A stretch of 64,000 nt of DNA, taken from assembly GCA_963713975.1 (NCBI GenBank), contig OY970218.1, forward strand, positions 537,451 to 601,450, written 5' to 3'. Below the pieces are notes generated by a model. It was not told the DNA's origin. It saw only the letters and a list, made by a program, of their open reading frames with translations, and did not search any database. Shown piece by piece: positions 3,993-7,424 of this stretch. The translations under genes and the position numbers were made by a program. Within the stretch, counting starts at the first letter, position 1. Every line of letters begins with the position of its first letter. The stretch is from an uncultured Chloroflexia bacterium (lineage in GTDB: Bacteria > Chloroflexota > Limnocylindria > Limnocylindrales > CSP1-4).

Positions 3993-6900
3993 GTGCCCGA
4001 GCTCCTCGCCGCCCCCAAGGACCACGAGGCGCATCGCCACGCTCCGGAGTCGGCGTCCATCGAAGGGCCTGCACGAGAGCCGGATCATCCGGTGCCGCAG
4101 CTCACGGCCGGTGAGATCGCACGGGGGACCTCCAGTGCCGGTCTTCGTGCGGCCCTGAACCCGGCGGGCCTGATGGCGATGCAGCGCCTTGCCGGCAACA
4201 AGGCAACGCTCCACGCACTGCGCCGCACCTCCGTTCAGCGCGTCGACCTCCTGGACAACCCCGTGGCATCGACCGACGAGGACAAGGACGACAAGGCAGC
4301 GGAGGAGGCAGGATCCTCGATCGACGAGACCTTCGCCCCAGGCAGCGCCGGGGCGACGGCTGGAGCGCCAGGAGGGACCGGCGGCAAAGCCGGGGAGACC
4401 GCCGTTGCCCAGGACGGGCCGGGGCTGAGCGGACTGACCGGGATCGCGGGCGAGGTGGCGGTCAAGGGCGAGGGTGGCAGGCAGATCGACGACGGACTGA
4501 CCGGGATCGCGGGCGAGGTGGCGGTCAAGGGCGAGGGTGGCAGGCAGATCGACGACGGACTGACCGGGATCGCGGGCGAGGTGGCGGTCAAGGGCGAGGG
4601 TGGCAGGCAGATCGACGACGGACTGACCGGGATCGCGGGCGAGGTGGCGGTCAAGGGCGAGGGCGGCAGGCAGATCGACGACGGACTGACCGGGATCGCG
4701 GGCGAGGTGGCGGTCAAGCAGGCTGGAGCCGATCAGGTTGGCGGAGGGGCCGGCGGGGCCGGTGGCGAAGGCATCGGCGGTGGCACGGCGGGCTCCGAGG
4801 AGATCCCGGCCGTCGCGGACCCTGCGGACATCGCCGTCACGGAGATCACCCAGCTCAGCGAGCAGCCGCCCGAGGTCGCCACCGGGGAGGTCGAGCAGCC
4901 GCAGGCACCCCAGCAGGAGCAACCCGCGAACCTCGAAGCGGGTACGGGTGAGATCGAGCGCCAGGCGCAGGGTGGTGGCGGCGGCATCGTAGACACGCTC
5001 ATCAACACCGCCGTCTCCACGTTCCGCGGCATCGCCGGCACGATCAGCGGCGGCGTCCGCGCGGCTGCATCCGGCATCGCCTCGCGCGTCGGCGGGTTCT
5101 TCAGTCGGGCCTTCTCCTTCGCCACGAACCTGGTCACCACGGTCACCAACGGCCTCCGCGGCATCGCCAGCGGCATCGCTACCGAGATCGGCACCCACCT
5201 CGGAGCGCTCAAGGACGGCGTGAAGGGGATCGTGACCCCGATCCTGAACGCCGTTCGCGGCGTCATGGGCCAGGTCGGCGGCGCGATCCGTGGCGCGATC
5301 ACGGCCATTCTCTCCGGCCAGCCGGTCCTGCCCACCCTCCTCGCCCCCTTCAGGGCGATCCTCGGCCCCTTGTTCGGCGGGATCACCGGCCAGATCACGG
5401 CCGTGATCAACCGCATCAAGGGGGCAGTGGACAACGCCATTGCCCGCGTCCTCCAGACGATCGTCTCGCTGACGCAGTCGATCATCAACGGGCTGACCTT
5501 CCTGGCGAACCTGCTGACCACCGCTGCCACGTTCCTCCAGGAGGAGCTCACCCGGCTCACGAACTGGGTCACGCAGGTCGTCTCGGGACTCCCGGACGTG
5601 CTCCGCCGGGTCATCACGGCGATCGTGAACGCCGTCATCGCGGCGGCCCGGCGGATCATCAACAACCTCGTGACCCGCGCTCGGGCGTACATCGCCCGCG
5701 TGATCGCCAACATCACCGCATTCGTCCAGCGCGCCATCGGGCTCGTGACGCGGATCGTCACCAACGTGCGCAACGCGGTCCGAGCGGCGCTCGATCTCGT
5801 GGCCGCAGGGGTCCGAACCGTGGCCAACGCCCTGAACCGCGTGAAGACCTGGCTGCTCGGCAAGATCGCGGCGTTCGTGGCGCGGGCCTTGCGCACCGTT
5901 CTCAACCCGATCGCGGAACGCCTCAAGCAGCGGCTGCTCGCACTTATCGGGCCCGCCGCCGCGGCGGCGATGCGGCAGGCACAGCTCCTGTTCCCCAACG
6001 GCCTGCCGGCCCCTCGGGAGGTCGTCCAGGCAGCCGAGCAGGGTGCCCGGGAGGTCGCCTCGGAGGCCGGCAGCGCGATCCTGGCCGGCCTCACGAACCC
6101 CGAGGGTGACCACATCGGCTTCGGCATCCAGCTCGCCGGTGGCGCCAGCGTCGGCGGACCGGCGGGCATCAGCGGCACGGCCGGTGCGATGTTCGACATC
6201 GTCCTCGACTACCGCCGCAATGACATCGGGTTCTTCCTCTCGCCCAACACAAGCGTGGCGGGAGGCCTTGGGGTCGGCGGGGGCGCGGCGGGCGGCCTTG
6301 GGGTCGCGGGGGCGTGGGGCACCGTCGCGACGTTCGGCGACGAATCCAAGGACGTCCTCGACGCCTACGGCGGCTGGTCCACCAACGTCTCGTACGGGGT
6401 GACAGGTGGCGTGGCTGACGTCATCGGAGCCGAAGCCTCAACGGGCGGTTCCTTCTATCGTGGTGGTGGCACGCCCGGTATCCCCGTCTTCTCGTACACC
6501 CCGCTCGGCGCGGATGAGCACCCGGTCCCCGGCACCGCGCCGGTCGCGATCCCCGGCACGACGACACCCGGCGCGCCCGACGTCCATGGCACGGCTCCAG
6601 TGGGCGAGGTCCGCTTCCCGCGACAGGTCAGCGACGTCGAGGCCGCGCCGGGCGGGCCCGCTGCCGTGGACGCGGCGGCCGTCGTCGTCAACGACCTGCC
6701 ATCGGGGACGCCGCCCCAGGAGGCAGCGCGGGTGGACGTGCTCGGAGAGGCCAGCCGCGTCTGGGATCGCCCGCGGAGCGGCCGGACCCGCGAGCAGGAG
6801 AACGCGGACCTCGCCGACGCCCGCGCGCGCAGCGTGGCAAGTCGCTTGCGGGGGCTGATCCGGGGCACCCCGGTCACGGAGCACGGGAACGCGGATCTCC

Positions 6901-7424
6901 GTGCCGCCGCCGCCGGCAAGGGCGTCCGCGACGCCTCGCCCGCGGATCAGCGGGCCTCGATGGTCGCCTCCACCGTGGTCCGTGGGACGCCGGGGACGAC
7001 CACGCCCGGGACGACGATCCCGGGCACGCCGCCGACGACGACCCCGCAGCAGCACACGTTCGGGATCGGCTCGATGCCGAACCCGTTGCAGGCACGCCAG
7101 ACCACGGGCTGGGACACGACGGCCAGTGCGACGTTCGTCGGCGGCGCGGAGGCGCAGGTGGGCGCCTACGGCGGCGTGGGCGTGAGCTACTCGATCCCGC
7201 TCGGCAAGGCACACATGGACCCCGAGACGATGCACATGATCCGCATCGTCACCGGGTTCATGAAGCTCATCGGCGACGTCGAGACGCTCAGTCCGCTGGG
7301 CTTCATCCGTGACGCGCTCGGCCTGTCGGCCGCCTTCTCCGAGCGTGACGGCGTGATCGGGGAGATGGCGTCCGCGGTCACGGACTGGGCGATCCCGTTG
7401 CCGCCGGGCGCGGCCGTGGCCTGA
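3993..7424 (+). CDS. Giant modular protein of unknown function. It has a leader-type QRxAGNxA motif, 21-aa tandem repeats, a long amphipathic-helix block, Gly-rich beta modules and an OmpA-like module
   Basis: Uninterrupted 1143-aa ORF. aa 62-75 read MAMQRLAGNKATLH. aa 147-243 are 4.6 copies of GLTGIAGEVAVKGEGGRQIDD. aa 331-700 (approx.) are low-complexity, helix-forming sequence rich in A/I/V/T/R/N/G. aa 700-830 (approx.) and 1010-1060 (approx.) are Gly-rich. aa 870-960 (approx.) read VRFPRQVSDV..VDVLGEAS..ENADLADARARSVASRL, which looks OmpA-C-like. PT-rich linkers join the modules. No signal peptide. The start codon is uncertain (GTG, no Shine-Dalgarno). Confidence 0.8.
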   Translation: MPELLAAPKDHEAHRHAPESASIEGPAREPDHPVPQLTAGEIARGTSSAGLRAALNPAGLMAMQRLAGNKATLHALRRTSVQRVDLLDNPVASTDEDKDDKAAEEAGSSIDETFAPGSAGATAGAPGGTGGKAGETAVAQDGPGLSGLTGIAGEVAVKGEGGRQIDDGLTGIAGEVAVKGEGGRQIDDGLTGIAGEVAVKGEGGRQIDDGLTGIAGEVAVKGEGGRQIDDGLTGIAGEVAVKQAGADQVGGGAGGAGGEGIGGGTAGSEEIPAVADPADIAVTEITQLSEQPPEVATGEVEQPQAPQQEQPANLEAGTGEIERQAQGGGGGIVDTLINTAVSTFRGIAGTISGGVRAAASGIASRVGGFFSRAFSFATNLVTTVTNGLRGIASGIATEIGTHLGALKDGVKGIVTPILNAVRGVMGQVGGAIRGAITAILSGQPVLPTLLAPFRAILGPLFGGITGQITAVINRIKGAVDNAIARVLQTIVSLTQSIINGLTFLANLLTTAATFLQEELTRLTNWVTQVVSGLPDVLRRVITAIVNAVIAAARRIINNLVTRARAYIARVIANITAFVQRAIGLVTRIVTNVRNAVRAALDLVAAGVRTVANALNRVKTWLLGKIAAFVARALRTVLNPIAERLKQRLLALIGPAAAAAMRQAQLLFPNGLPAPREVVQAAEQGAREVASEAGSAILAGLTNPEGDHIGFGIQLAGGASVGGPAGISGTAGAMFDIVLDYRRNDIGFFLSPNTSVAGGLGVGGGAAGGLGVAGAWGTVATFGDESKDVLDAYGGWSTNVSYGVTGGVADVIGAEASTGGSFYRGGGTPGIPVFSYTPLGADEHPVPGTAPVAIPGTTTPGAPDVHGTAPVGEVRFPRQVSDVEAAPGGPAAVDAAAVVVNDLPSGTPPQEAARVDVLGEASRVWDRPRSGRTREQENADLADARARSVASRLRGLIRGTPVTEHGNADLRAAAAGKGVRDASPADQRASMVASTVVRGTPGTTTPGTTIPGTPPTTTPQQHTFGIGSMPNPLQARQTTGWDTTASATFVGGAEAQVGAYGGVGVSYSIPLGKAHMDPETMHMIRIVTGFMKLIGDVETLSPLGFIRDALGLSAAFSERDGVIGEMASAVTDWAIPLPPGAAVA
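4431..4722 (+). repeat. 63-bp in-frame tandem repeat, 4 full copies plus 1 partial copy, essentially identical
   Basis: The unit GGACTGACCGGGATCGCGGGCGAGGTGGCGGTCAAGGGCGAGGGTGGCAGGCAGATCGACGAC starts at 4431, 4494, 4557, 4620 and 4683 (partial). I see a single T>C difference, in copy 4. Confidence 0.97.

Follow-up and report, generated by a model that had tools for sequence, protein, structure and literature searches.

A two-gene cassette in a 64,000-nucleotide stretch of DNA from an uncultured Chloroflexia bacterium (assembly GCA_963713975.1, contig OY970218.1, positions 537,451 to 601,450 of the forward strand; hereafter the window) encodes a large protein (3993-7424) and a small partner (7455-8072). 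The best explanation of this pair is a cargo (effector) cassette that belongs to a phage-tail-like contractile injection system (CIS) and stands here as an orphan copy, with no CIS visible in the window; we give this reading a probability of roughly two in three. It rests on the homology of the N-terminal leader, a tape-measure-like block, the C-terminal module, the linkage to the partner gene and a collinear family member, P0027, that lies in a CIS locus. The large protein had earlier been described, from its sequence without database searches, as an orphan modular protein with an effector-style leader and an architecture that fitted no characterised family (hereafter the original prediction). 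Each module listed in that description is present in the uninterrupted open reading frame (ORF), and the cassette is laid out as follows.

3993..7424, + strand: the whole large gene, 1143 aa and a stop codon, with leader, linker, tape-measure-like rod and a C-terminal region of beta, OmpA-like and beta parts.
3993..4292, + strand: disordered N-terminal leader (aa 1-100) with the conserved motif PAGLMAMQRLAGNKA, the core at nt 4173-4214 and SVQR at nt 4230-4241.
4293..4982, + strand: acidic Gly/Ala-rich disordered linker (aa 101-330), placed by composition and alignment gaps.
4430..4718, + strand: tandem repeat encoding GLTGIAGEVAVKGEGGRQIDD, 63 bp x 4.6 with 99% matches (Tandem Repeats Finder, TRF).
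4983..6092, + strand: basic amphipathic alpha-helical block (aa 331-700) with remote homology to the length tape measure proteins of phage tails.
6099..6113, + strand: P-E-G-D-H motif (aa 703-707) at the junction of the helical rod with the first beta strand.
6105..6551, + strand: Gly-rich beta module 1 (aa 705-853), in which hydrophobic residues alternate strictly with Gly/Ser along six long amphipathic strands predicted by AlphaFold2 with a predicted local distance difference test score (pLDDT) of 56-85.
6582..6980, + strand: OmpA-C-like (Pal/MotB-like) domain (aa 864-996) with PT-rich linkers on both sides.
6987..7046, + strand: PT-rich linker repeats PGTTTPGTTIPGTPPTTTP, from the TRF rows and translation.
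7101..7421, + strand: C-terminal module (aa 1037-1143) with a further pair of long amphipathic strands (GWDTT... / ...SYSxPLGK), followed by helices with a conserved SPLGFIRDA.
7455..8072, + strand: partner gene, 205 aa, starting 30 nt after the large gene, with a predicted concanavalin-A-like beta sandwich.

The decisive evidence for a link between this family and CIS is the presence of P0027 inside a CIS locus (L100, a 17-kb locus of NCBI assembly GCA_035514295.1). P0027 has 1191 aa, and its alignment with the window protein runs from where the helical block begins as far as the C-terminus, 829 aa at 35% identity (BLASTP E 7e-124). On one strand L100 encodes a sheath, a tube, two small ORFs, a 595-aa protein with the eCIS_core (DUF4157) domain of extracellular CIS (eCIS), a second gp19 tube protein, CIS_tube and a VgrG-like spike, and on the other a Pvc16_N cap protein, a WHD-AAA ATPase, P0027, its partner and a 934-aa ORF. 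P0027 starts at position 10001 of the locus, two bases past the stop codon of the AAA+ ATPase, and its partner is homologous to the partner in the window (hhalign probability 100%). Two further large ORFs of the locus bear on the argument.

L100 14194-16996, + strand: 934-aa helical ORF, running to the contig end after the partner and beginning QLLSMQGVAGNAAVSRLV...VQR.
L100 2416-4203, - strand: 595-aa eCIS_core protein with a long Pro/Ala-rich N-terminal region, no QRxxGN motif and no match to a tape measure hidden Markov model (HMM).

A search of the six-frame translation of L100 with a regular expression for the leader gave exactly two matches, at the N-termini of P0027 and of the 934-aa ORF. 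The latter matched nothing in Pfam or PHROGs and probably encodes another cargo of this CIS. P0027 itself matches tape measure families at 8e-8, and among the three large ORFs of the locus that were tested it alone has tape measure HMM matches, the eCIS_core protein having none.

The leader connects the family to CIS cargo from a different direction. Its motif, MAMQRLAGNKATLH at aa 61-74 (nt 4173-4214) with SVQR at aa 80-83, is unchanging across the family alignment and lies at aa 41-93 in every full-length distant member, with the gene call of P0036 beginning at the motif. The original prediction had likened the leader to the N-termini of DUF4157-type proteins, a likeness that held up when it was compared with 80 metagenome loci collected with the DUF4157 domain as the sole query. 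In 73 of these loci at least 40 aa precede the domain, and the pattern [LMIVF]Q...GN was found there in 50 and the strict form [LMIVF]QR..GN.A in 23. Likewise, GLLALQRTAGNAAV...VQR precedes the domain in a DUF4157 protein of a Streptomyces plasmid. Alignment of the family leader with the leaders upstream of DUF4157 by hhalign gave a probability of 97.1% and a P of 6e-11, a somewhat inflated score, and in a sliding-window control of 81 windows over the whole family alignment only two leader windows scored, the next best P being 0.011. By this profile-profile comparison the leader of the large protein is homologous to the leader upstream of eCIS_core domains.

Two relatives support the same connection independently of the motif-anchored leader alignment. 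P0052 (1300 aa) combines the leader with an eCIS_core domain (PF13699, 3.7e-31), the helical block, the family C-terminal region and the family partner gene, and is the only family member in which an eCIS_core domain was found. P0085 (686 aa) has an otherwise unrelated architecture in which the family leader is joined to PG_binding_1, TPR repeats and the divergent OmpA-like domain of the family, suggesting that the leader may serve several wall-directed cargos. The motif is also specific to its place. It was matched once in the six-frame translation of the window, at this N-terminus, and in nine of ten family loci it was matched once, at the family gene only, with L091 giving no strict match and L088 a variant. 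A word-indexed search with a 42-aa leader profile gave nine candidates. Searching plasmids with the leader by tblastn gave matches at E 1-8, three of the eight being annotated DUF4157 proteins; one plasmid match considered as a leader relative (H1) was set aside as a chance match. Searching viral contigs for the DUF4157 domain gave no match. As an observation apart, a second N-terminal pattern, the Cys-rich LQRKCACGG...C.EC, stands before DUF4157 in about ten of the loci L008-L087, and P0039 carries both this pattern and an LQRxxGNxAV leader.

The helical block that follows the linker was matched by 11 tail length tape measure families of the PHROGs collection at E<=1e-3 over aa ~330-646 (best 2.2e-14 and 1.4e-13). 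A tblastn search of 50,697 phage genomes with aa 331-700 gave matches in 37 records (best E 2e-8), and 14 of the 15 rows listed lie under an annotated tape measure gene, the gene under the fifteenth being annotated as hypothetical in that record. Pfam matched the block to generic amphipathic-helix families only (Baculo_PEP_C and DUF7217, with Apolipoprotein in relatives). The block carries a net charge of +24 and shows no clear transmembrane helix, no 19-aa window of aa 331-700 exceeding 1.52 on the Kyte-Doolittle scale. These matches indicate remote homology between the block and the tape measure proteins of phages. The original prediction was correct in placing an amphipathic helical block here, while its view of the block as an unassignable, lipid-coating region has to be given up, since the block is homologous to tape measure proteins. 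For the same reason the architecture of the protein as a whole is no longer unassignable and can be placed beside the tape-measure-related CIS effectors Tme and Sle1 (see below). Full-length homology to a well-characterised family, which the original prediction had named as a finding that would speak against it, was not what was found, because the tape measure homology covers only about one third of the large protein.

The C-terminal 450 aa were modelled with AlphaFold2 from a 10-sequence alignment (mean pLDDT 72.9). Within them aa 864-996 were predicted with a pLDDT of 87-94 as a beta-alpha-beta-alpha-beta-beta fold, for which Foldseek against the PDB returned Pal (5n2c, TM 0.67 on the target, probability 1.0) and also MotB, TssL and TagL, the wall anchor of the type VI secretion system. 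The OmpA-C-like module of the original prediction is confirmed by this predicted fold. At the level of sequence, Pfam OmpA (PF00691) matched four of 19 relatives at E<=0.01 (best 3.3e-6) and not the window protein itself, and 14 of 17 sub-threshold PDB profile matches were OmpA-like and aligned on the N..LS..RA..V helix. In 19 diverse members the G-D-H of the PEGDH junction (aa 705-707) is invariant, as are a few Gly, Phe and Ser residues and N937, L940, R944 and A945 of the OmpA-type helix. In the OmpA family the Asp of the GHTD motif and the Arg of the RA..V helix bind diaminopimelate; the position of the canonical GHTD Asp is occupied in this family by an invariant Ser (S921).

This domain is surrounded by eight long strands, of which six precede and two follow it; they correspond to the two Gly-rich beta modules (aa 705-853 and 1037-1143) that the original prediction had recognised on its flanks. 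The insert is absent from the homologue P0005. Averaged over the family, hydropathy in the strands alternates strictly between one face at roughly +2 to +3.5 and another, made of Gly, Ser and Thr, at -0.4 to -1.5. Seven of the eight strands show an alternation difference of 1.8-3.2; the helical block averages 0.49. The three best matches in BFVD, with a probability of 0.72-0.92, were to outer membrane proteins of OmpA type in their entirety and extended over 371-417 columns; Opa, porin and autotransporter barrels followed at low probability. We read the predicted C-terminal region as an OmpA-like eight-stranded barrel with a wall-binding fold inserted in one turn.

The small co-directional gene noted in the original prediction proved to be a genuine conserved partner. 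A homologue lies directly downstream of the large gene in 13 of the 15 loci examined, the CIS locus included, and is retained even with the most distant members, whether the large protein bears DUF4157 or is only 22-25% identical; only the two subfamilies that diverge most lack it. The AlphaFold2 model of the partner is all-beta (pLDDT 83.8, predicted TM score 0.84). Foldseek returned 606 PDB matches at E<=1e-3, of which the best 50, those listed, are of lectin, carbohydrate-binding module (CBM) or glucanase type and are led by CBM66 (TM 0.71-0.77, probability 1.0). Pfam PF06439 (DUF1080), the family that we take to include CBM66, was reached below its cut-off both in the window (E 0.13) and in the L100 orthologue (1.6e-5, 25.4 bits against a cut-off of 26.8 bits). 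A sequence search of the PDB returned noise only for the partner, and neither a DUF4157 match nor a signal peptide was found in it. The predicted fold is of the CBM66/DUF1080 type, that is concanavalin-like and lectin-type.

The large gene is real. Its reading frame opens with GTG at 3993, and its GC content at the three codon positions, 0.71/0.55/0.89 (third-position GC, GC3, 0.89), is typical of the true genes in the window, the GC content of which is 71%. The database gene call begins at V34 and gives a protein of 1110 aa; the start at 3993 is favoured because alignments of homologues reach the first 'VP/MP' residues. Two ORFs overlap the gene on the opposite strand.

3744-6113, - strand: antisense ORF, 789 aa.
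4733-6199, - strand: antisense ORF, 488 aa.

Both fail the codon-position GC test and were rejected as artefacts of high GC. Inspection of the sequence revealed no N-terminal hydrophobic stretch and no Sec- or Tat-type N-terminus, consistent with the absence of a signal peptide reported in the original prediction. The acidic linker described there is likewise present (Gly 25%, Ala 15%, net charge -26), as are the 4.6 copies of its 21-aa repeat and the PT-rich linkers. Linker length varies from about 250 to 360 aa across relatives, in variable, gap-rich alignment columns. The closest homologues each contain the motif G[IL]AG[QE]V..TGK once or twice, and the 21-aa repeats of the window protein are a recent amplification of it. 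The families DUF4157, OmpA, LXG/WXG and those of toxins in Pfam and NCBIfam had no match to the window protein, PADLOC gave no defence family match, and a sequence search of the PDB with the full-length protein returned noise only.

The protein is not the strict orphan that it was first taken for. An exhaustive HMM search with a profile of the C-terminal region found 75 proteins at E<=1e-3 among 1.84 billion representatives; full-length members have 1070-1300 aa, with the profiled region always C-terminal. Word-indexed searches gave six full-length relatives at 49-77% identity, plus fragments, and the genome collection gave five matches, all in metagenome-assembled genomes (MAGs) titled 'uncultured Chloroflexia bacterium'. 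There were no relatives in the 2.9 million viral contigs of IMG/VR. The original prediction had asked whether its order of modules recurs, and the leader, helical block and C-terminal region were indeed found again in family members, the C-terminal region being the most conserved part and the N-terminal linker the variable one. A family in which a loading leader is combined with a tape-measure-like rod and an envelope module of OmpA type is most likely previously undescribed. One Chloroflexia-labelled MAG holds a frameshifted, truncated pseudogene copy of the family gene (L095 9839-13200) with an intact leader and no partner gene, next to ORFs that by eye resemble a transposase; as a frameshifted pseudogene it was left out of the count of genomic contexts.

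Several observations weigh against the cargo reading. A plain HMM of the leaders upstream of DUF4157 scores the window protein at 8.2 bits (E 0.068, rank 2 of 707 six-frame fragments), and the anchoring of the leader alignment on the motif accounts for the inflation of the hhalign score. The Pfam eCIS_core model (PF13699), a search proposed with the original prediction, did not match the window protein at E<=1. The strands of the C-terminal region are predicted with the pLDDT of 56-85 given above, and their closure into a barrel is putative. Peptidoglycan binding by the OmpA-like domain is uncertain and should not be assumed, because the canonical GHTD Asp is replaced by the invariant Ser. There are no CIS structural or phage-tail genes in the window, the original prediction having remarked on the lack of visible secretion machinery, and neither CIS nor phage-tail genes were found at nine other family loci (L001-L004, L088, L096-L099) in the flanks obtained, which reached 10 kb on either side at most, depending on the contig. 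The association with CIS is seen at one locus only (L100), with ten of the 11 contexts lacking CIS genes. The surrounding genes vary from locus to locus, and the two-gene cassette is the sole conserved unit.

The main rival makes the family a structural tape measure, that is, a length ruler equivalent to Cis14/Afp14 that is expelled on firing, with a C-terminal module like the functional C-termini of some phage tape measures; we regard this as unlikely. The order of genes in classical eCIS operons is Afp14-15-16, and P0027, beside the genes for the AAA+ ATPase and the Pvc16-like cap protein, sits in just such a neighbourhood. A ruler would also suit the well-conserved length of the tape-measure-like block and the finding that P0027 was the only one of the three large L100 ORFs with a tape measure HMM match. 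An essential structural gene would not, however, be expected away from its operon, as it is in the window and the nine other contexts, and in L100 the slot between the tube/chaperone-like genes and the tube initiator/spike, which we take to be the P2-type tape measure position, is occupied by the 595-aa eCIS_core protein. Nor does a ruler sit well with a linker that differs by about 110 aa among close relatives, the recent repeat expansion included, or with the observation that Streptomyces particles without Sle1/2 show no apparent structural defect (PMC13277306).

Next in rank, and also improbable, is a cassette that in the lineage of the window is independent of any CIS, encoding an envelope protein with membrane-associated helices and an OmpA-like wall tether, released or exported by another route, perhaps under envelope-stress control and with the lectin-like partner as a co-factor. 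This would account for the ten contexts without CIS genes and would be in keeping with the Apolipoprotein-type helix matches in six relatives. Regulators of envelope type do lie nearby, namely an extracytoplasmic function (ECF) sigma factor in the window and in L002 and two-component systems in L001, L002 and L088, but they differ from locus to locus. The protein also lacks a Sec/Tat-type N-terminus, and the leader motif stays invariant in the orphan copies, which argues that the leader is still used there. Effectors encoded away from the machine are in any case known for CIS, with 12% of known eCIS toxins lying more than ten genes from the operon (Danov et al., PMC11297309). Very improbable, finally, are a polymorphic toxin-immunity pair using a non-CIS route (type VII or similar), which the two-gene layout with its small downstream gene resembles, and a leftover prophage tape measure gene, to which the homology of the helical block would point, given that no LXG/WXG or toxin family was matched (Pfam, NCBIfam, PADLOC), that the most conserved, not polymorphic, part is the C-terminal region while the N-terminal linker varies, that no phage genes flank the copies in the window and L001-L004, and that there are no relatives among the viral contigs and no att-like repeat at the nearby tRNA genes.

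If the pair is a CIS cargo cassette, the leader would target the large protein for AAA+-dependent loading into the tube lumen, by analogy with the N-terminal domains of AlgoCIS cargo. The acidic linker and the basic tape-measure-like rod would lie extended in the tube in the manner of tape measure proteins, and contraction would expel the large protein, with its C-terminal module then acting on a cell envelope. There the eight-stranded OmpA-barrel-like part may insert into a membrane while the OmpA-C-like domain holds the wall, and the lectin-fold partner, staying in the cytoplasm, would be the cognate immunity protein or a chaperone/adaptor. Loading, ejection and membrane insertion of the large protein are proposals drawn by analogy, and the secretion and toxicity suggested in the original prediction are likewise putative. 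A bolder version, which is possible though we think it doubtful, is of a new class of CIS payload that delivers a ready-made OmpA-like barrel with an inserted wall-binding domain into the envelope of a target or sister cell, the tape-measure-like rod serving as carrier and the lectin-fold protein protecting the producer, with the [LM]QRxxGNxAV leader as a portable loading signal that marks DUF4157-less cargo far from CIS operons.

One of the closest known systems is Tme (BN159_7576) of Streptomyces davawensis, in which DUF4157 is followed by a tape-measure-like region and a nuclease and which binds to baseplate proteins of the CIS (Nagakubo et al. 2024, PMC11126660). Comparing the window protein with the published description of Tme, both are large and mostly non-globular, with an N-terminal CIS-effector signature, a tape-measure-like region and a C-terminal functional module, and the DUF4157-then-tape-measure order of Tme is that of P0052; a further parallel is that P0027 is encoded in a CIS locus. 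Tme differs in having the DUF4157 domain and an EndA-type nuclease at its C-terminus, whereas the window protein has the leader only and a beta/OmpA-like C-terminus; it also has no predicted transmembrane helices, is accompanied by a conserved lectin-fold partner and is encoded away from CIS genes. Sle1 of Streptomyces lividans is a tape-measure-related cargo that is packaged in the particle and moved to lipid membranes, and in a Micromonospora relative an immunity gene lies downstream (Nagakubo et al. 2026, PMC13277306). Sle1/Sle2 and the window pair share a tape-measure-related helical protein in a conserved two-gene unit, the cargo role being established for Sle1. The partner of Sle1 is, however, a small DUF4157 protein beside the sheath gene, while that of the window protein is a ConA-like sandwich with no sheath gene nearby, L100 being the exception. 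Sle1-type C-termini are diverse, in contrast to the C-terminal region that is the conserved hallmark of the window family, and Sle1 is found in Actinobacteria, whereas the closest homologues of the window protein in the genome collection come from Chloroflexia-labelled MAGs.

Work on AlgoCIS showed that cargo needs the disordered N-terminal domain preceding DUF4157 in order to be loaded, that DUF4157 itself can be dispensed with and that loading is carried out by an AAA+ ATPase (bioRxiv 10.64898/2026.05.27.728243). The AlgoCIS cargos Cgo1 and Cgo2 (PMC8894135) and the window protein are alike in having a disordered N-terminal domain at the position ahead of DUF4157. The eCIS_core effectors carry the DUF4157 domain itself, which is missing from all members of the window family but one, and the body of the window family is instead tape-measure-like. 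The operon-proximity criterion for such effectors (about ten genes of an eCIS operon, two of a DUF4157 gene) takes in P0027 but not the window copy or the nine other loci. The 370-aa block of the window protein matches many phage tape measure families, yet phage tape measures sit in the tail module, with chaperone genes on one side and distal tail/baseplate genes on the other, while the window copy has as neighbours a PIN/Phd pair, the partner, an ECF sigma gene and housekeeping genes; the window protein also adds a leader, an acidic linker and an OmpA-like region. OmpA itself is an 8-stranded barrel with a C-terminal OmpA-like domain, and the C-terminal region of the window protein has eight strands and aligns over 370-417 columns (BFVD). 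Unlike OmpA, the window protein has no signal peptide, and its OmpA-like domain lies between strands 6 and 7 rather than being appended; compared with OmpA, Pal and MotB, the GHTD Asp is an invariant Ser and the Pfam OmpA match is below significance. The large protein resembles the tape-measure-related CIS effectors, yet has no DUF4157 domain, adjacent DUF4157 partner, sheath gene or variable C-terminus; its payload and lectin-fold partner are new, as are its orphan location and its occurrence in Chloroflexia-labelled hosts.

The immediate surroundings of the cassette in the window are the following.

1-981, - strand: RecA-like ATPase, cut by the window edge.
1135-1299, + strand: tRNA-Ala(cgc) and tRNA-Tyr(gta), with the cassette 2.7 kb downstream.
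1379-2035, - strand: 218-aa ORF with no family match.
2295-3089, - strand: YgjP-like metallopeptidase.
3159-3554 and 3551-3874, - strand: PIN-domain toxin and Phd/YefM-type antitoxin, overlapping by 4 nt and divergent from the large gene.
8023-9285, + strand: ECF sigma gene as a listed ORF, with sigma domains from aa 264, placing the true start near 8750.
8161-8706, - strand: opposite-strand ORF of 181 aa (GC3 0.88) with no Pfam, PHROG or PADLOC match.
9278-10987, + strand: 569-aa ORF following the sigma gene and proposed as its anti-sigma factor.
29629-29704, + strand: tRNA-Ala(ggc), before leuS.

The RecA-like, 218-aa and YgjP-like genes lie upstream of the toxin-antitoxin pair. That pair had been called VapBC in the original prediction, and a toxin-antitoxin pair with a PIN domain it is, with an antitoxin that Pfam assigns to the Phd/YefM type and not to VapB; it is not kept beside the cassette in other genomes. 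Of the ECF sigma/anti-sigma pair proposed there, the ECF sigma factor stands, while the anti-sigma ORF has no Pfam, PHROG or PADLOC match. A prophage or genomic island was considered and rejected: there is no GC anomaly and there are no IMG/VR relatives, and because no att-like direct repeat of the tRNA ends was found in 1100-13000 there is no evidence of an integrated island. The housekeeping genes of the window include leuS, comEA/comEC, holA, rsfS, nadD, obg and rho. Between obg and rho lies an ORF (44931-46295, - strand) that by eye resembles LysM-repeat and M23-peptidase proteins and is unrelated to the cassette.

Cargo is the least understood part of CIS and mostly remains unannotated for want of recognisable signatures. 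With the present family the recently proposed class of tape-measure-related effectors reaches outside Actinobacteria; both its payload, a putative OmpA-like barrel plus wall-binding fold, and its type of partner, a lectin fold, are new. Its leader is kept where DUF4157 has been lost and its cassettes usually lie far from the machine, so that searches by operon proximity or by DUF4157 would miss such cargo. The leader common to two adjacent ORFs behind the AAA+ ATPase in L100 is a candidate loading signal, which is of relevance to the engineering of protein delivery particles. If this is true, the leader motif alone could be used to mine DUF4157-less cargo genome-wide.

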